From: a virus
Lineage: Duplodnaviria > Caudoviricetes
Direction: 5' to 3' (one strand)
IMG/VR virus record: IMGVR_UViG_3300010346_001007
Location: 32,001 to 96,000 of that record
Length of the DNA: 64,000 nucleotides
Part shown: positions 5,725 to 33,505 of the stretch, in pieces
Position numbering within the stretch: position 1 is the first letter of the stretch
Layout of the letters: each line of letters begins with the position of its first letter
The notes under the pieces: model-generated
Told to the model about the DNA's origin: nothing
Database searches by the model: none
What the model saw: only the letters and a program-made list of their open reading frames with translations
Translations under genes and position numbers: made by a program

Positions 5725-6046
5725 TCAATTATATAGTTTAACTGATGAAGAATTGGGGATGGCGTTATATATCGTAAACCATTTGGAAGATTCTTCAAAT
5801 AAAATACAATATAATCCACATAATCTTACATGGTTTAAGCACGATGCACTAATAAAAAAATTTTTGCGTGCATTTGAACAAATAAAACCGGAGGGACATA
5901 CTATTTATGTTTCGTTAATGAAGAAATTAGGAGTACACATTGAGATAAATTCATCACCGACTAATGAATCCCAACGAATTGAAAGCCCGGAAAATAATAG
6001 ACTTGCATCAGAAACGAGTGTTCCACTTGATGATGCGTATGGCTAA
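5714..6046 (+). CDS. hypothetical protein
   Basis: 110-aa ORF overlapping both neighbours in the same-strand run. Confidence 0.55.
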   Translation: MTLNQLYSLTDEELGMALYIVNHLEDSSNKIQYNPHNLTWFKHDALIKKFLRAFEQIKPEGHTIYVSLMKKLGVHIEINSSPTNESQRIESPENNRLASETSVPLDDAYG

Positions 6047-6443
6047 AGATGTGGTCGAGCGAGCACATCATCACGACATGTCAAAATTTGGAGAGGAAGA
6101 ATTTCCACATTATGCTAATGTTATAGAGGAATTTGAAAAATTTTCATTTGGAAGTGACGGATATAATTGTGCTAGAGAAAAATTAGGAATAGCACTTAAA
6201 CATCATTATGAAAATAATCGACACCATCCCGAGCATTTTCCTAATGGAATTGATGACATGAATTTAATTGATATATTAGAAATGATTTGTGATTGGAAAT
6301 CGGCCACACAAAATCATTCGGCAGTTAAAGGAGATATATCAAATTCGGTGGAGATATTATCTGAAAAATATAAAATAAATCCGCAACTTAAATCAATTAT
6401 TTATAATACATTGCGTGATTTTAAAGCTTTAAATAACGAATAG
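5964..6443 (+). CDS. HD-like phosphohydrolase (DUF5662-like)
   Basis: HDMSKF, HHYENNRHHPEHF, EMICDW. Confidence 0.7.
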   Translation: MNPNELKARKIIDLHQKRVFHLMMRMAKDVVERAHHHDMSKFGEEEFPHYANVIEEFEKFSFGSDGYNCAREKLGIALKHHYENNRHHPEHFPNGIDDMNLIDILEMICDWKSATQNHSAVKGDISNSVEILSEKYKINPQLKSIIYNTLRDFKALNNE

Positions 6444-6522
6444 AAATAAAAAACATTTCAATTATTGGGATGTGAGTTTTATAGAATGAATGTTGCTACT
6501 GGAGAACTGAAAAAATACTAAT

Positions 6523-7914
6523 ATGTATCAGAATATATTTTATGACCGAAAAAATGAAACGGTTTATTTGTGGGACGATGCACAGGGAATGTTATGCATA
6601 CCATCTTCAAAATTTCATTATGCATATCGGCGTAAAGCAGGAGGAACTTATAAATCTCTTTATGGAGAAGAACTCGAAAAAGTAACAATATTTGATGCAC
6701 AAGACCCGTCATTATTTGAATCGGATGTAAGTATAGAAATGAAATGCTTACGAGATATGTATGAAGACAGTGACGAGCCATCCGTGGGCCATAGAATTGT
6801 TATTTTGGATATTGAAGTAGATTCAACAGGAGGATTTCCAAATATTGATACAGGAGATAAAACCATTACGGCAATTGCTATGTACAATCAATTGTCTGAC
6901 CGATATATTTCTTTAGTATTAGATCCCGAAAACAAAGTTAAAAATAAAATTGATGGAAATGTAGAAATTAAATCTTTTCGCACTGAAAAAAGTCTATTAT
7001 TAAAATTTTTAAATATATGGGATGAAATAGGACCTACGATTGTAAGCGGATGGAATATAATGTATTTTGATATTCCATATTTGTATAATCGATTAAGAAA
7101 TGTATTAGGAAAAAGTGGGGGGTATCGGTTATCTCCGGTAAAAATAGCATATCAGAATTCATTTACTAAAAAAGTAACTATTGCTGGGGTTTCTATTTTA
7201 GATTATTTAGAACTGTATAAAAAATTTATTGGTTCCATGAAATCATCGTGGGCTTTAGCTAGTGTGGCTAAAGATGAGGGTTTAAAAACCCAAAAACTGA
7301 CATATAAAGGCAGTTTAACGGATTTATATAAAAATGACATTCACAGATATATTGAATATAATTTAACTGACGTTAAAGTAGTCGTAGAACTGGATAAAAA
7401 GTATGATTTTATCTATTTGGCTCGTTCTGTATGTCATAAAGGACATGTACCATATGATAATTTTCAAATGTCAAGTAGGTTTATTGATGGAGCCATTTTG
7501 ATGTATTTGAGAAGGAATAAGTTAGTTGCTCCCAATAAACCACCGGAAGGAAGGGCCGAATATGAAGCGATGGAAAGAGAGGGAGAAATTGGATTTACCG
7601 GAGCGTTTGTAAAGTCTCCAGTGCCCGGTCTTTATGATTGGATTGCTTCGGCGGATATTACTTCGCTATATCCTAGTGTAATTATGACCTTGAATATAAG
7701 TCCCGAAAAAAAGCTAGGGAAGATCGAAAATTGGGATATGATGTCATTCCGGCGGGGAGAAATTCCCGAGGTACACTTAAATGGGAATAAATATTCCGCC
7801 GACCACTTCAAGAAGATGTTGTCAGATCATAAGATTGCCATATCAAGCAATGGAATAATTTACTCACAGCCTACAAGAAAGGTTGTAGGAAGAATTATTG
7901 AAAATGATACTTAA
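6523..7914 (+). CDS. polB: DNA polymerase family B, N-terminal part (3'-5' exonuclease and motif A)
   Basis: LDIEV (ExoI), GWNIMYFDIPY (ExoII), YNLTDV (ExoIII), DITSLYPS (motif A). Confidence 0.92.
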   Translation: MYQNIFYDRKNETVYLWDDAQGMLCIPSSKFHYAYRRKAGGTYKSLYGEELEKVTIFDAQDPSLFESDVSIEMKCLRDMYEDSDEPSVGHRIVILDIEVDSTGGFPNIDTGDKTITAIAMYNQLSDRYISLVLDPENKVKNKIDGNVEIKSFRTEKSLLLKFLNIWDEIGPTIVSGWNIMYFDIPYLYNRLRNVLGKSGGYRLSPVKIAYQNSFTKKVTIAGVSILDYLELYKKFIGSMKSSWALASVAKDEGLKTQKLTYKGSLTDLYKNDIHRYIEYNLTDVKVVVELDKKYDFIYLARSVCHKGHVPYDNFQMSSRFIDGAILMYLRRNKLVAPNKPPEGRAEYEAMEREGEIGFTGAFVKSPVPGLYDWIASADITSLYPSVIMTLNISPEKKLGKIENWDMMSFRRGEIPEVHLNGNKYSADHFKKMLSDHKIAISSNGIIYSQPTRKVVGRIIENDT

Positions 7915-7956
7915 TGTTTTTGTTTTATATTCATAGTCATAATAAATGAAGGAAAT

Positions 7957-8640
7957 ATGAATACAAAAAAGTGGACTATAATTTGTAATAAGTGTGGAAA
8001 AATTAAAATCTATTCTACATATAGTGGATATTATGAGGCTAAGAGATTGGGCAGGATTTTTTGTAGATCTTGTGCCATTAAAAAACGATGGGAAAATAGT
8101 AAAGAAAGATCTAAATATGATCGTTTAATTAAGCAAGGACAGCGATTTGGGAAGTTGGTAGTTTTATCTAAAAAAATAGAAAGAGGAAATCAGGTTTTAT
8201 GTAAATGTGAATGCGGCAATTTACTTAAAAAAAGAGCTATTAGATTATTAACCGAAAATAATAATGGATGTCAAAAATGTTTGATTGGAGAATTAAATCA
8301 TCTTTGGAAAGGAGTTGGAAAAGTGCCCAAAATTGCTTTAACACGAATAAAACATCACGCTATTAGAACACATAAAGAATTTAATATTACACTTAAATAT
8401 TTATCAGAAATATTTGACAAACAGCGGGGAAAGTGTGCATTATCTGGAATGAATTTAAATTTTGGAGTTTCAAATATAATAGAACAAACTGCATCGTTAG
8501 ACAGAATTGATTCCTTAAAAGGATATATTAAAGGCAATGTGCAATGGGTTCATAAAAATGTTAACTGGATGAAGCAAGATTTTTCGGAAGATGAATTTTT
8601 ATCTCTGTGTAAAAAAATCGTGGAATATCGTAAAATATGA
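7957..8640 (+). mobile_element. free-standing HNH-type homing endonuclease between the two polB halves
   Basis: CxxC zinc motifs, GQRFGKLVV..CKCECG module, KCALSG, SLDRIDSLKGYIKGNVQWVHKNVNWMK. Confidence 0.8.
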
Positions 8641-9983
8641 TAAAAGTAGAAATAAATGGGAAATTATTAGAGTTTAATGATCGTGCATCTGTAGATGCAT
8701 ATCTCAAAACCCACAACATGGACGTAGATGAGGATGGTAATATATTCCAGGTAGAAGGACGAGGAGTAATTCCAACAATTCTTGATGTATGGTTTAAAGA
8801 ACGTCTTGAATATCGAAAGTTGCAAAAAAAATTTTCTGATGAGAACAATACAATTCAGTCGGAATTTTATAAGAGGCGACAGTTGAGACAGAAAATATTT
8901 CTTAATTCTATTTATGGAACTCTGGGACTTCCTGTATTCCGTTTTTATGACCGAGACAATGCCGAAGCGGTTACTATGTCGGGCCAAGAAATTATTCTCT
9001 CGACATCGAAATTAGTCAATGATGAATTTTTAAATAGATATAAAAATAAAAAGGCCACTCCACCAACAGATGATTTTATTGTATATATTGATACAGATTC
9101 AATTTATTTTTCATCATTGCAATTAGCCAAATTAGAAGGAAAAACTGATGATATGACTAAATATACGATTGATCTTGTACAACAAGTAGCAAATAAAATC
9201 AATCGGTTTTATGAATACATGGTTCCTCGTGTTTTTAATGTTGCGCCCGAATTTAACCGGATAAAAATTGTACCGGATGTTGTTGCTAAGAAAGCATTGT
9301 GGATAGTTAAAAAAAGATATGCCATGCTCAAAGTATTTGACATGGAAAAAATGAAGCCCGTAATGGGAAAAGGCGGAGAAGAAGGAAAACTAGAAGTAAA
9401 AGGAATTGATGTTGTACGTTCAAGTTATCCAGCAGCATTTCGAAAATTTTCAGCAAATATTCTTGAATCAATTCTGCGGGGAGTTTCCCGTGTAGAATTA
9501 GATGAACAGATTATGCAATTTGAAGAAAATATAGAAAAGTATGCTGTTGAAGAATTATGTAAAACGAGTTCCGTAAGATTTAAATCGAGAGATGGGAAAA
9601 CGGATTATAGGCCCATAGACAGAAAGCGGTTTCAGTTTGTTTTAGGATCTCCTCCTCAAGTTAAGGGGGCATTATCGTATAATGATTTATTGAAAGTATG
9701 GAAATTACATCGCCAATATGAATCAATTGGACATAGTGAAAAAATTAAATGGTGTTATTTACTTCCAAATGATTTTAATTTGAGTGAAATAGCATTTAAA
9801 GGAGATGATACCGATCCTGATAAAATTTTGGATTTCATTTCTCATCACATTGATCGTAGAAAAATGTATGAAAGAGAATTAAAGTCAAAATTGTCCGAAA
9901 TTTATGCGGTTATTGGATGGCCCTATCCGAATAGAGGTTCACAGTTGGCTGAAAATACATTTAATTTTGATGAAGAGTGGTAA
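8637..9983 (+). CDS. polB: DNA polymerase family B, C-terminal part (motifs B and C, thumb)
   Basis: GVIPTIL, KIFLNSIYG (motif B), YIDTDS (motif C), KKRY, KGIDVVRS. Confidence 0.92.
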   Translation: MIKVEINGKLLEFNDRASVDAYLKTHNMDVDEDGNIFQVEGRGVIPTILDVWFKERLEYRKLQKKFSDENNTIQSEFYKRRQLRQKIFLNSIYGTLGLPVFRFYDRDNAEAVTMSGQEIILSTSKLVNDEFLNRYKNKKATPPTDDFIVYIDTDSIYFSSLQLAKLEGKTDDMTKYTIDLVQQVANKINRFYEYMVPRVFNVAPEFNRIKIVPDVVAKKALWIVKKRYAMLKVFDMEKMKPVMGKGGEEGKLEVKGIDVVRSSYPAAFRKFSANILESILRGVSRVELDEQIMQFEENIEKYAVEELCKTSSVRFKSRDGKTDYRPIDRKRFQFVLGSPPQVKGALSYNDLLKVWKLHRQYESIGHSEKIKWCYLLPNDFNLSEIAFKGDDTDPDKILDFISHHIDRRKMYERELKSKLSEIYAVIGWPYPNRGSQLAENTFNFDEEW

Positions 9984-10035
9984 AATATAATAAATTGCCA
10001 ATATAGGATAAATTTGATATACTAAGAATTGTAAT

Positions 10036-10782
10036 ATGAAGAAACAAGTACTAGAAACATTTATTAAAAGATATTCGCTGGGGGGAGAAATAAATAAAGT
10101 TAAGTGGAAATATACGGCGGACGCAAAAACTTTACATGCTAGAGCAACGGCGGATGGAAGATGTTTTATTGCGGATGTGATTCTCCATAATTTCAGCGAT
10201 TTTGGGGATGAAGATATAGACATTTGTATTGGAGATACTGAGAAAGTAAAAGCGATGTTATCTCCATTTATAAGTGAAGATTTGCGTTTTACGATAAATA
10301 AAACCGAAAGTAGAGTATTGGGATTTTCTATATCCGACGATGATTGTGAAAGTTATTGTACCGCCGCCGATCCTTCTTCCATCGATCCGGTTGCTAAGAA
10401 TCTAAAAGAAATTCCTGATTATGATGCAATTATACCATTGAGCGGGGAATTTGTTGATAAATTTTTAAAAGCAAAAGGTGCATTAAAAGATGTAACAAAT
10501 TTTTCAGTAGGAATGAACAAAAGTGGCGAATTTGAAATGATAATTGGTTATATCACCGCTAATTCTAATCGAATTCGGTTAAAACCAACGTGTGATGATA
10601 AATATAATAAAGTTACACAGGCATTATCTTTTCCTATTAAAAATGTTGCCGAAGTATTTAAGGCAAATCGTGATATTTCAGATGGAAAATTATCTATTAA
10701 TAGTGCTGGAATTATACAAATATATTATTCAAATGCGGATTATACATGCACTTATTACCAATTTGCAAATAAGAAAATATAG
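10036..10782 (+). CDS. probable sliding clamp (gp45/PCNA-like)
   Basis: 248 aa with a two-repeat alpha/beta pattern, between polB and the clamp loader; mainly inferred from position. Confidence 0.6.
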   Translation: MKKQVLETFIKRYSLGGEINKVKWKYTADAKTLHARATADGRCFIADVILHNFSDFGDEDIDICIGDTEKVKAMLSPFISEDLRFTINKTESRVLGFSISDDDCESYCTAADPSSIDPVAKNLKEIPDYDAIIPLSGEFVDKFLKAKGALKDVTNFSVGMNKSGEFEMIIGYITANSNRIRLKPTCDDKYNKVTQALSFPIKNVAEVFKANRDISDGKLSINSAGIIQIYYSNADYTCTYYQFANKKI

Positions 10783-11058: not shown

Positions 11059-12027
11059 ATGTTTGATCCAAATACATTTTTTGAAATGGAAGAACGAGTA
11101 CCCGTATCCGATCATAGTTTATGGGTAGAACGGTATCGTCCCCGAAATTTTGAAGACTTCATTGGAAATTCCACTTTGAAAGAAACTTTAAAAATGTGGG
11201 TTGAGAAAAAGGACATTCCACATTTATTATTATATAGTAGTCCTGGAACGGGAAAAACATCTTTGGGAAAAATGATTGTCGATCTAATTCCTTGCGATTA
11301 TCTTATTATTAATGCCTCAGATGAGAATGGTGTGGATAGTATAAGAGATAAAGTACAAGAATTTTGCATGACAATGGGAATGCGGAATTTAAAAGTAATG
11401 TTTTTAGATGAAGCAGATCGACTCACCCCCGATGCACAAGGAATTTTGAGAAATTTGATGGAGACTTATTCTCATTCAACTCGATTTATTTTAACTTGTA
11501 ATTATAAAGATAAAATAACTCCGGCAATATGGTCCCGGTGTCAAACATTTGAAGTGCGTCCACCTTCTAAAAGTGAAGTAGCTAAACATTTGGTAGGAAT
11601 TTTGAAAAAAGAAGAAATCCAATATCAAACTGAAGATGTAGTATTTATAGTAAATAGTTATTTTCCTGATTTGAGGAAAATTATCAATTATACCCAACAA
11701 TCTTCTATTGAAGGAGAATTGAAAATTGCTCGGGCAAGTGCTGCCGAACAAGATTATAAAACTAAATTAGTCGAATTATTAAAAGAAGCCCGTACCAGAA
11801 CCAGGGTATTTGATGAAATACGTCAATTAGTAGCGGACGCTTCGTTTTCTAATTATGACGAAGTTTATCGATATTTATTTGATCATATCAATGAATATTC
11901 TCCACAGGAGAAGGTTCCTATGGTTATTTTGAACTTGGCGGAATCTATTTATCAATCAGCATTGGTGTTTGAAAGAGAAATCACTTTCGTTGCAGCAATG
12001 CATAAATTGTTAACAATATTAAAGTAA
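11059..12027 (+). CDS. clamp loader ATPase (RFC small subunit / T4 gp44-like)
   Basis: LWVERYRP, PGTGKT, INASDENG, LDEADRL, SRC. Confidence 0.92.
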   Translation: MFDPNTFFEMEERVPVSDHSLWVERYRPRNFEDFIGNSTLKETLKMWVEKKDIPHLLLYSSPGTGKTSLGKMIVDLIPCDYLIINASDENGVDSIRDKVQEFCMTMGMRNLKVMFLDEADRLTPDAQGILRNLMETYSHSTRFILTCNYKDKITPAIWSRCQTFEVRPPSKSEVAKHLVGILKKEEIQYQTEDVVFIVNSYFPDLRKIINYTQQSSIEGELKIARASAAEQDYKTKLVELLKEARTRTRVFDEIRQLVADASFSNYDEVYRYLFDHINEYSPQEKVPMVILNLAESIYQSALVFEREITFVAAMHKLLTILK

Positions 12028-30790: not shown

Positions 30791-33505
30791 ATGGATATTA
30801 AATGGAGTGATCCATATTCTATGAAAATAGGGTTTCGCACCGTATGGCGAAGAGAGTGGTGTATTCCTCCCTCCATGTTAGAATCGTTTTTCATGTTCTG
30901 GAAACGTAACCGATTTAAGATGTTAGCCAATGGATTTACGGTTACTAAAAGTTCTAATACTGGAAAATGGTTTTTATTTGAAACTAAAGATAATATAAAA
31001 TTATTTGATTCTTTTAGTTTGGAGGAACCTTCGCTCCCCGTAGATTCTTTTGTATTACCGGATTATCAAATTAAGAATATACAAGGATTGCGTACTTGGC
31101 AAGTAGAATCTGCCGGAAAATTATGTGCAGCAATTAAGCATTGGGGCGCAGCCATTGATGGTAGCGATACTGGATGTCATGCTAAGGGTCAGCCAATTTT
31201 AATGGCTAATGGAACTATTAAAAAAGTTGAAGATATTATTGTTGGTGATATTATAATGGGATGGCAGGGACCTCAAATAGTAACAGAATTAAAACGTGGT
31301 CGACAGAGAATGGCTAAAATAATCCCTAAAAAAGGCAAATCTTTCATTGTAAATTTAGATCATATTTTAACTGTTGCATTGACCAACAGTTGTTCTAAAA
31401 CACATAAAACTACGGGAGGGTATTGTTATGGTAGTATTGTGGACATTAAAGTTAAAGATTATCTTAAATTATGTAATGCTACTAAACATGCAATGAAATT
31501 ATTCTCGGTTGCAGTAAATAATTGGGAGAGTAAAAATTTACCTTTTAGTCCATATTTTGTGGGTGCTTTACTCGGAGATGGAGGAATGTCAACACGATCT
31601 ACAGTTACATTTACATCTAAAAAAAGTGTAATTTGGGAAATGATTTCCAATGAATGTAATGAAAATGGATGGAAACTTGGGACTACAAAAGAGAACATTA
31701 CACGAAGAATAACTAATGCTCCAACATTATTTAAATGGTTAAGAGATAATAATTTGTTGCCAGTTTCATGTGCAAATAAATTTATTCCTCACAATTATAA
31801 AACGGGAAGTCAAGAGCAACGATTACAATTATTGGCCGGTTTGTTGGATACCGACGGTTATTATCATCGTAACAATGGATATGAAATAACATTAAAATCT
31901 TCTCGATTATCGGAAGATATAGTATTTGTTGCCCGATCCCTTGGATTATCAGCATATACTAACCCCTGTAAGAAAAAAAGTAGTACTGGAGTAATAGGAG
32001 ATTATTTTAGAACATTTATAAGCGGAAATGTTGATATAATACCATGTCGGGTCGATTATAAAAAAGCGAAACCCAGAAGACAAAAGAAAGATGCTCTACG
32101 TCGGGGATTTAGAATTGAATTACTCGAAGAAGACGATTACTATGGGTTTTCCCTGGATGGAGATGGTAGATTTTTATTGGGGGATTTTACTGTAACACAT
32201 AATACTGGTAAAACTTATTCTTCAATTGCAGTTGCTCGGGAATTAGATTTAAAAATTTGTGTAATATGTCCCAAATCAATTATTAATAAATGGAAACAAG
32301 TTATTACAGAACATTTTGGCCTTGGAGATAAATTAATTGATGTAACTAACTATGAAAAACTTATTCGAGGAAATAAGGATTCAAAAATTGGTTCGTTTGT
32401 ATTGCATCGTCATGCTAGAGGTAAAAAATTTGAATGGAAACTCCCTAAAAAAACACTTATTATATGGGACGAAGCACATAAATTAAAAAACTGGAAAACT
32501 CAAAATGCAAAAAGATGTAATGATGCCATTGTAAAGGGCTATCCGATGTTATTTTGTTCGGCCACCTTAGCTACTAATCCATTAGAAATGAGAGCTATTG
32601 GTAAAGCAGTTAAGTTATTTACTGGTAGCCGATCTTATTATGATTGGGCATATAATAATGGTGTATATAAAGGAACATGGGGGTTGGAATTTAATAATGA
32701 TAGAAGAGTACTTAAACGACTCAATCATCAATTATTTACCCAACGGGGAGTGCGGTTGAGGCGGGATAAAATACCCAATTTTCCAGTTAGCGAAATTAGT
32801 CCAGAAATATATGACATGGATTTACAAGATGTCAACAAGATCAATGAAATTTTTTGGGAAATGGAACGGGAACTTGAACTTGTTCGTCAGAGAGAAAAAG
32901 AAGATAAAAAAAGAGCCAATCAAGTAAATCAAGAATTACAAGAAATAGTAATTCAAATGCGAGCAAGACAAAAAACAGAATTAGTAAAAGTGCCCCTGTT
33001 TATAGAAATGATAGAAGAAGCTAAAGAAGAGGGGTTTTCAGTTGTAGTATTTGTTAATTTTACCGAAACTTTACAAGCAATGGCTAATCGTATTGGAACA
33101 ACATGTATTTTTGATGGACAAATTCCAGATAAAGAGCGAGCAAAAAATGTGAAGTTATTTCAAGCGGATAAAGAACGAGTAATTATTGTCAATACTCAAT
33201 CAGGAGGGACGGGATTAGATTTACATGATTTACATGGTAATTTTCCAAGATTAAGTTTAATTTCTCCTGCATATTCGGTTATCCTTATGAAACAAGCATT
33301 GGGCCGAGTTTGGAGAGATGGAGCTAAAACCAAAAGTCTTCAAAAAATTGTTTGCGTGGCAAATACAGTTGAAGAAAATGTATGTAAAAATTTGCAGAGA
33401 AAATTTAATAATTTGAGTTTATTGAATGATGGTGAATTGGATAAGTTAGATATACTTAGTGATAAAGATTTGGCATATTCGAGAAATTCAACAATAGATA
33501 TATAA
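30791..33505 (+). CDS. SF2 (SNF2-like) helicase containing an intein
   Basis: Walker A DTG|TGKT interrupted by the intein; DEAH, SAT, GGTGLDL, QALGRVWR. Confidence 0.88.
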   Translation: MDIKWSDPYSMKIGFRTVWRREWCIPPSMLESFFMFWKRNRFKMLANGFTVTKSSNTGKWFLFETKDNIKLFDSFSLEEPSLPVDSFVLPDYQIKNIQGLRTWQVESAGKLCAAIKHWGAAIDGSDTGCHAKGQPILMANGTIKKVEDIIVGDIIMGWQGPQIVTELKRGRQRMAKIIPKKGKSFIVNLDHILTVALTNSCSKTHKTTGGYCYGSIVDIKVKDYLKLCNATKHAMKLFSVAVNNWESKNLPFSPYFVGALLGDGGMSTRSTVTFTSKKSVIWEMISNECNENGWKLGTTKENITRRITNAPTLFKWLRDNNLLPVSCANKFIPHNYKTGSQEQRLQLLAGLLDTDGYYHRNNGYEITLKSSRLSEDIVFVARSLGLSAYTNPCKKKSSTGVIGDYFRTFISGNVDIIPCRVDYKKAKPRRQKKDALRRGFRIELLEEDDYYGFSLDGDGRFLLGDFTVTHNTGKTYSSIAVARELDLKICVICPKSIINKWKQVITEHFGLGDKLIDVTNYEKLIRGNKDSKIGSFVLHRHARGKKFEWKLPKKTLIIWDEAHKLKNWKTQNAKRCNDAIVKGYPMLFCSATLATNPLEMRAIGKAVKLFTGSRSYYDWAYNNGVYKGTWGLEFNNDRRVLKRLNHQLFTQRGVRLRRDKIPNFPVSEISPEIYDMDLQDVNKINEIFWEMERELELVRQREKEDKKRANQVNQELQEIVIQMRARQKTELVKVPLFIEMIEEAKEEGFSVVVFVNFTETLQAMANRIGTTCIFDGQIPDKERAKNVKLFQADKERVIIVNTQSGGTGLDLHDLHGNFPRLSLISPAYSVILMKQALGRVWRDGAKTKSLQKIVCVANTVEENVCKNLQRKFNNLSLLNDGELDKLDILSDKDLAYSRNSTIDI
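31175..32203 (+). mobile_element. intein with LAGLIDADG homing endonuclease (343 aa)
   Basis: Starts CHAKGQPILMANG; block B VNLDHIL; GALLGDG and LAGLLDTDG; ends FTVTHN followed by Thr+1. Confidence 0.92.

Follow-up and report, generated by a model that had tools for sequence, protein, structure and literature searches.

A phage family-B DNA polymerase gene split by a probably mobile endonuclease cassette that carries a diverged copy of a polymerase module

The DNA polymerase gene (polB) of a phage of the class Caudoviricetes is divided in two by a gene for an endonuclease-like protein, and the dividing segment encodes a diverged second copy of a module of the polymerase itself. The locus lies in a stretch of 64,000 nucleotides (the window; positions 32,001 to 96,000 of IMG/VR record IMGVR_UViG_3300010346_001007), which is part of a 119-kb viral contig estimated to be ~34% complete. 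The explanation favored here, with a probability of about 0.72, is that an old mobile endonuclease cassette splits polB and brings an adaptor with it, in the form of a tail for the first half and a head for the second. Such a cassette would add a short basic tail (P-x-KK-IVGK-II) to the upstream frame and end it with a stop codon, supply a gene for a free-standing HNH/His-Me-finger-like endonuclease, and open the downstream frame anew with an acidic, diverged copy, of ~42 amino acids (aa), of the hairpin-helix-hairpin module that directly precedes the insertion site, leaving a complete module on each half. The two polypeptides would assemble non-covalently, with the N half giving the exonuclease and motif A, the C half giving the fingers, motif C, and thumb, and the tail and head acting as the element's built-in adaptor. 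Translation of the C half appears to be coupled to the preceding gene by an ATGA overlap. The cassette would have been gained and lost repeatedly between close relatives, presumably through endonuclease-driven homing and conversion back from intact alleles, and the endonuclease can decay while the split, tail, and head remain.

Three co-directional open reading frames (ORFs) make up the locus: the N half of polB, the endonuclease-like ORF, and the C half. An initial annotation, made from the letters alone, had placed the exonuclease and motif A in one ORF and motifs B and C in another, with an HNH-like gene, a 42-nucleotide (nt) spacer (7915-7956), and an ATGA stop/start overlap (8637-8640) between them, and the ORF list, the Pfam matches of the two halves, and the sequence confirm this layout. 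The N half matches DNA_pol_B_exo1 (PF03104) and positions 14-89 of DNA_pol_B (PF00136), including motif A, and the C half matches the rest of the latter domain (positions 114-353). In PHROG 262, a full-length polymerase family, the N half covers positions 17-470 and the C half positions 442-850. Residues 1-385 of the AlphaFold2 (AF2) model of the N half superpose on residues 4-~386 of RB69 gp43 (Z 38.8), and residues 40-445 of the C-half model superpose on residues 466-903 (Z 25). These alignments place the split at the palm/fingers boundary, at about gp43 residue 465. Exo and motif A residues are invariant in 21 aligned split N halves, as are motif B and C residues in 16 split C halves, and the two halves jointly contain the exonuclease domain and motifs A, B, and C by which a family-B polymerase of the T4/RB69 gp43 type is recognized.

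The limits of the cassette (Table 1) were set by comparing split alleles with their nearest intact relatives. N halves resemble their intact kin through the module as far as NGxxYxQ (near-identically in P0162/L077) and then diverge; in C halves, likeness to intact kin begins sharply at G(V/I)(V/I)P, and the head that precedes it is unlike the lineage's native module. Since similarity breaks after NGxxYxQ and resumes at G(V/I)(V/I)P, the module copy in the N half is native and the unit from tail to head is inserted. Database N halves from split alleles, of ~460 aa and 43-69% identity, all end with the module, a tail of the form Y-x-Q-P-x-(K/R)-K-(I/V)-(I/V)-G-K-(I/V)-(I/L), and a stop. The motif P-x-(K/R)-K-(I/V)-(I/V)-G-K-(I/V)-(I/L) terminates 24 split N halves, 23 of the 24 tails are net basic, and P450 is invariant, with G456 and K457 nearly so, in 21 aligned N halves. 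Many split C halves in the database are ~448 aa long, with the first ~42 residues conserved, and split alleles from metagenomes, dozens in number and as little as ~40% identical, keep both tail and head. The hexamer ATGATA, which had been noted at both edges of the insertion, was rejected as an insertion edge or target duplication, as it occurs 102 times in the window against 94 copies expected by chance and the true edges are at ~7870 and ~8762.

Table 1. Parts of the split polB locus, in window coordinates.
Feature	Position	Strand	Basis
polB N half, 463 aa: N-terminal domain, 3'-5' exonuclease, early palm including motif A (DITSLYPS)	6523..7914	+	ORF, Pfam, PHROG, AF2
Native palm module copy, N residues ~413-449, ending ...ISSNGIIYSQ; hairpin-helix-hairpin	7759..7869	+	Sub-HMM, split/intact pairs
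Whole inserted cassette, 893 bp: tail and stop, spacer, endonuclease-like gene, start and head	7870..8762	+	Comparison of split and nearest intact alleles
C-terminal tail that the cassette adds to the N half, PTRKVVGRIIENDT, and TAA stop	7870..7914	+	Tail conservation
Spacer, 42 nt, with purine-rich GAAGGAA directly before the endonuclease ATG	7915..7956	+	Sequence
Free-standing endonuclease-like gene, 227 aa: Cys-rich N part, conserved C-terminal core	7957..8640	+	PHROG, atlas neighbours
polB C half, 448 aa: cassette-encoded head and body	8637..9983	+	ORF list
C-half head, residues 1-42, MIKVEINGK...DGNIFQVEGR: acidic, diverged module replica	8637..8762	+	Profile-profile comparison, conservation
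C-half body: fingers (motif B, KIFLNSIYG), palm (motif C, YIDTDS), thumb	8763..9983	+	Pfam, model alignment

Intact relatives possess the ~45-aa module once, between motif A and the fingers, and the window possesses it twice. In every intact relative, the same 20-50 residues align with the last part of the N half and with the first part of the C half, and in a hidden Markov model (HMM) of 14 intact relatives the N half occupies positions 1-458 and the C half positions 411-834, an overlap of 48 positions. The native copy scores 34.8 bits against the sub-HMM of the intact relatives, a score reached by 0 of 1000 shuffles. Direct BLASTP between the two copies is not significant (E 1.9), and it is a profile of 17 C-half heads that hhalign aligns with the same segment of intact polB (probability 91.6%, P 8.4e-7), over 42 ungapped columns in a register set by the downstream GVIP anchor. 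Judged by this comparison of family profiles, through which alone the homology shows, the head is a diverged copy of the module. The predicted secondary structure is equal in both copies, a hairpin-helix-hairpin composed in the AF2 head (pLDDT, the model's local confidence score, 84-89) of strands 2-6 and 9-13, helix 16-25, and strands 28-30 and 36-38, and in the N-half copy of strands 416-419 and 422-425, helix 426-434, and strands 438-440 and 445-448. No part of polB varies more than the native module (37-47% identity, versus 57-80% elsewhere); in the head, E5 and L23 are invariant and N35 nearly so among 16-17 split C halves. At the DNA level, the copies share a 17-nt match of 82% (7771-7787 and 8646-8662), too short to weigh.

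The HMM overlap, the head profile, and the shared predicted structure bear out the claim of the initial annotation that a ~40-aa module is duplicated, although the copies have diverged. Looked for in tandem in intact homologs, the module proved to be single in them, the second copy being tied to the split. The proposal that the duplication arose at the split holds as far as that tie goes and fails as a local event: the head is unlike each lineage's native module, which the N-half copy tracks, and the second copy is therefore cassette-borne and would belong to an old mobile element.

The split is found in some relatives of the phage and absent from others. No near-identical DNA was found in cultured phages, and the closest cultured relative, Microcystis phage Mel-JY01, has an intact polB of 848 aa (43% and 36% identity). 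Intact single-ORF polB genes of 856-859 aa with 60-69% identity are present in IMG/VR (L004/L031, L005, L029, L032, and L033), and the gene is thus uninterrupted in close relatives and the insertion lies inside its coding region. The layout of N half, endonuclease, and C half recurs in L030, L055, L056, L192, L193/L194, L195, L196, and L199; the endonuclease of L030 is 74% identical to that of the window, and the polB of L055 and L056 is 41-47% identical. The recurrence of this architecture in independent metagenomes and the record of the window's exact C half on 29 contigs indicate that the split is genuine, as the initial annotation had held.

The distribution of the two states is that of an element that comes and goes. 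A tree built from the N domain, leaving out the module, interleaves 23 split alleles with 36 intact ones, and its well-supported branches force at least 9 changes. A single clade of split alleles is rejected (approximately unbiased [AU] test, p 1.9e-34), and the split state is polyphyletic. The 58 residues 3' of the insert (C residues 43-100) are 88% identical to those of intact L029, compared with 61-76% elsewhere, a mosaic consistent with recombination at the site. Divergence among heads and among endonucleases is of about the same extent as in polB; the element therefore seems to co-diverge with its lineages, its presence flipping among close relatives.

Some alleles have kept the split without the nuclease. 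In L191 the endonuclease gene is gone and the N-half stop is 5 nt before the C-half ATG, with tail and head intact. In L190 and L198 the endonuclease is cut to its last 33-38 codons, tail and head being retained, and the remnant in L190 still overlaps the C-half start. The divided gene, tail and head included, thus outlives the endonuclease, an argument that the halves function as two chains and that it is the polymerase, not the nuclease, which tail and head serve. Because the catalytic motifs are invariant in 16-21 diverged split alleles and the split persists without the endonuclease, a two-chain polymerase is the best reading of the two halves and a likely one. In the AF2 model of the isolated N half, the tail has a pLDDT of <50 and the motif A region is also of low confidence, as is expected if both need the partner chain.

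Evidence for the nature of the endonuclease-like protein comes from PHROG profiles, with matches to 3322 (endonuclease, 3.8e-25), 1035 (endonuclease VII), and 3118/374/3377 (HNH), and from the protein-atlas neighbours of the 227-aa ORF, which bear Endonuclease_7 or HNH. Its conserved core reads KCALSG...ASLDRIDS.KGY..GNVQWVHK.VN.MK.DF, and the Asn and His of GNVQWVHK.VN are conserved among the aligned homologs. On these PHROG and atlas matches, the protein is a putative free-standing endonuclease of HNH/His-Me-finger-like type. For this family, IMG/VR contains at least 568 relatives, nearly all of them away from polB (only 4 of the best 80 adjoin it); one is 1 nt upstream of an intact polB and another is behind the clamp-loader gene. 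Such scattered genomic sites are the habit of free-standing homing endonuclease genes. In addition, L030 has a second endonuclease-like gene in pieces (L030:3740-3887), which matches residues 178-226 of the window protein in two frames just upstream of the N half. These fragments look like a decayed copy, at a place that in L031 is occupied by an intact copy, ahead of an undivided polB.

Several observations weigh against the cassette as described. The single C head of the window scores 0 bits against the segment sub-HMM, which 313 of 1000 shuffles reach. Between the window and L030, the cassette parts are slightly more conserved than the flanks (HNH 74%, polB 63-64%), and loss followed by re-conversion within lineages would give the same tree pattern as horizontal spread. 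The endonuclease-like protein has no match in Pfam (E<=10), NCBIfam, or PDB, profile search included. HNH_3 enzymes such as I-HmuI have a D-H motif that contains the first catalytic His (the general base); here the motif is ASLDRID in 6 of 6 aligned homologs, with Arg at the HNH_3 first-His position, and the canonical His is absent. The earlier HNH label thus stands on the PHROG profiles and atlas neighbours and finds no counterpart in Pfam, NCBIfam, or PDB or in the first His. The head of one C half in the database (P0004) appears to comprise only ~20 residues, although its start is possibly miscalled, and a full head may not always be needed. Finally, with the contig ~34% complete, the phage may have a second polymerase.

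Cassette tails are basic (mean net charge +3.3, pI about 10-11, 24 split N halves), heads are acidic (mean net charge -4.5, pI about 4.4), and the native module is near neutral (mean -0.5, 38 intact enzymes). This pattern of basic tail and acidic head would fit a duplicated module that forms the interface between the chains. It is also conceivable, though unlikely, that the duplication is a passive by-product: a single copy, most likely the head (in cis with the fingers and motif C), would occupy the canonical palm place, the N-half copy would merely be tolerated, and tail and head would have no dedicated docking role. Consistent with a by-product, the module evolves faster than any other part of polB and may thus be a surface element under little constraint, the N-half copy is no more than the native sequence of its lineage, and the P0004 head is seemingly truncated. 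Such a view is countered by the tail motif shared by 24 N halves and the invariant positions of the head, by net charges that are opposite in tail and head and unlike those of the native module, by the retention of both after endonuclease loss, and by the N-half copy of endonuclease-less L191, which shows no decay. Beyond an adaptor in general terms, a more specific proposal is offered tentatively, at somewhat less than even odds: a "split-and-repair" mobile element in which a homing endonuclease travels with a purpose-evolved replica of a target module and a complementary basic peptide that together form a docking device, operating by module-module pairing or by strand and charge pairing between tail and head. 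If true, the docking device would make the palm/fingers cut phenotypically neutral and would stay indispensable after the endonuclease is gone, and the "split-and-repair" element would be a third route beside introns and inteins.

A domesticated or inactive endonuclease-like protein, which no longer homes and is kept for expression of the C half or for the replisome, would account for the patchy distribution by recombination between split and intact alleles only. The Arg in place of the canonical His in 6/6 homologs and the unmatched curated HNH models agree with such a protein, as does a stop/start overlap with the C half that is kept in all loci, even by the 33-aa L190 remnant. Nevertheless, this alternative is improbable: the gene is dispensable, having been lost in L191, PHROG profiles group the protein with endonucleases, its IMG/VR relatives occupy many unrelated sites in the manner of free-standing homing endonuclease genes, and split and intact states flip between very close relatives.

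Neither an intron nor an intein was detected, in agreement with the initial annotation. Rfam gives no match at E<=1 over 6000-10500, and intein Pfam families give none on either polB half. The sole non-coding DNA between the halves is the upstream spacer of 42 nt, with a 4-nt overlap downstream. Split-intein features are lacking as well, since the 14-aa tail is too short for an N-intein and the "HN" of the head (residues 26-27) is unconserved in the family. Rejoining of the halves into one polypeptide through a cryptic intron, a split intein, or ribosomal bypassing is consequently very improbable, even though inteins do occur in other polB alleles of the group (L193 matches Intein_splicing with 29 bits against a Pfam cut-off of 35.8, and PF14890 is present on several database polB N fragments) and bypassing is known in a comparable cassette, T4 gene 60 (bioRxiv 10.1101/2022.08.31.505936). 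Moreover, the C half is in a different frame ~720 nt downstream, and in L055 and L056 unrelated extra ORFs (YopX and another) separate the halves.

Other interruptions of polB were encountered in the same phage group. The N half of L193 (L193:1733-4171; also L194) is 812 aa long, with an in-frame insert of ~335 aa after residue ~180, in the exonuclease domain, that matches Intein_splicing (1.1e-6, 29 bits, below the cut-off of 35.8) and, weakly, LAGLIDADG_3; this polB seems to carry an intein besides the endonuclease cassette. The polB N fragments P0143, P0146, and P0174 (572-600 aa) stop elsewhere, after motif B or in the region beyond, and some end in ...YGALGLC, resembling an intein start, which suggests further independent interruptions.

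A polB pseudogene disrupted by a selfish insertion, or a split that is an assembly artefact, with replication left to another polymerase, is very improbable despite the incomplete contig, as both halves are full-length, their catalytic motifs are invariant, dozens of diverged split alleles come from independent samples, the exact C half is on 29 contigs, and the synteny with clamp and clamp-loader genes is preserved. In sliding-clamp position downstream of the C half is a 248-aa protein with no Pfam match (10036-10782), followed, as in relatives, by an 85-aa ORF and by an RFC/gp44-like clamp-loader ATPase (11059-12027).

Within the cassette, the spacer is ~86% identical to that of L030, judged by eye. 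The N half, the spacer, and the endonuclease ORF share a frame with TAA as its sole stop (7912-7959); this is not so in L030 and is probably coincidence. A hairpin over the endonuclease start codon is no better than shuffles in the window and L030 (z -0.43 and 0.05), and a promoter/terminator scan of 6300-10200 found nothing above shuffles and no evidence of a promoter of the endonuclease's own. Additional small ORFs lie between the N-half stop and the endonuclease gene in L055 (4992-5390) and L056 (5073-5375), one of the YopX family (1.1e-16) and the other encoding an unrelated Cys-containing protein of 100 aa; the interior of the cassette can therefore take up cargo.

The locus enlarges the small set of genes in pieces that lack introns and inteins by a family-B replicative polymerase, split at a new palm/fingers site and represented by dozens of natural variants. 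It would indicate that a diverged copy of one of the host protein's modules can serve an element as its antidote, and the adaptor-tail idea can be tested here on a well-understood enzyme with RB69 and T4 structures. Alleles with intact, truncated, and lost endonucleases form a natural series of the element's life cycle, and the split site is one that a B-family polymerase tolerates naturally, which is useful in protein engineering. Annotators and phylogeneticists should be aware that polB is often two genes in this phage group.

Among known systems, the split gp43 of Aeromonas phage 25 concerns the same enzyme. Its halves are active and co-purify, according to Petrov, Ratnayaka & Karam (2010) as cited in PMC2988022. 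As in the window, phage 25 (and 44RR) encodes a T4-type family-B polymerase as two genes with a free-standing endonuclease between them, and the spacing is akin (44 nt, endonuclease gene, 2 nt). However, the phage 25 split is ~40-50 residues further downstream, at the finger tip, where 43A stops after the first finger helix and 43B begins ahead of motif B; its endonuclease is of GIY-YIG/seg type, 43B contains a group I intron, and no module is duplicated. Identity of the window's split with that of phage 25 was thus rejected, as the site differs and phage 25 duplicates nothing.

In the nrdA-a/mobE/nrdA-b locus of Aeromonas phage Aeh1 (Friedrich 2007; Crona et al. 2011), a free-standing endonuclease gene of HNH type divides the gene of an essential enzyme, and neither an intron nor an intein is involved; the window's putative endonuclease gene divides polB in like manner. 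The basic C-terminal tail and the acidic N-terminal tail that the insertion adds to Aeh1 NrdA are both essential for activity (PMC3045599), and their polarity, basic on the first half and acidic on the second, matches that of the window, whose tail and head thus share a charge polarity with tails of experimentally proven importance. In contrast, the Aeh1 target is ribonucleotide reductase rather than a polymerase, its tails are unique and unlike the host protein, whereas the N-terminal extension in the window is a diverged replica of a neighbouring polymerase module, and the Aeh1 case was regarded as one transposition-like event, whereas the window's cassette is widespread and polymorphic.

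The closest concept is MobA in T4 gene 39/60, with repeated insertion at one site, conserved terminal extensions, and an insert-borne target-homologous homR (Manning & Atkins, bioRxiv 10.1101/2022.08.31.505936). The MobA endonuclease may be intact, decayed, or lost while the split and tails stay (bioRxiv 10.1101/2022.08.31.505936), the same pattern of insertion and decay as in the window's cassette. The MobA element differs in its 50-nt translational bypass, no signal of which was seen in the window, in its topoisomerase II target, and in its Mob HNH family; unlike it, the window duplicates a whole 42-aa structural module. "Fractured genes," in which replication genes of environmental phages occur as two adjacent genes around an endonuclease gene (Dassa et al. 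2009, PMC2677866), differ in that split inteins rejoin their halves by trans-splicing, and no intein blocks were found in the window's polB. As in other genes in pieces, an endonuclease ORF with its own start and stop stands between the window's halves, which have conserved insert-derived extensions. Neither this polB cassette nor an adaptor made of a duplicated module was found described in a search of the literature, which was necessarily incomplete. The general kind is known from phage 25 gp43A/B, Aeh1 nrdA-mobE, and T4 MobA; what is new is the place of the split, the family of the endonuclease, and the adaptor as a self-copy.

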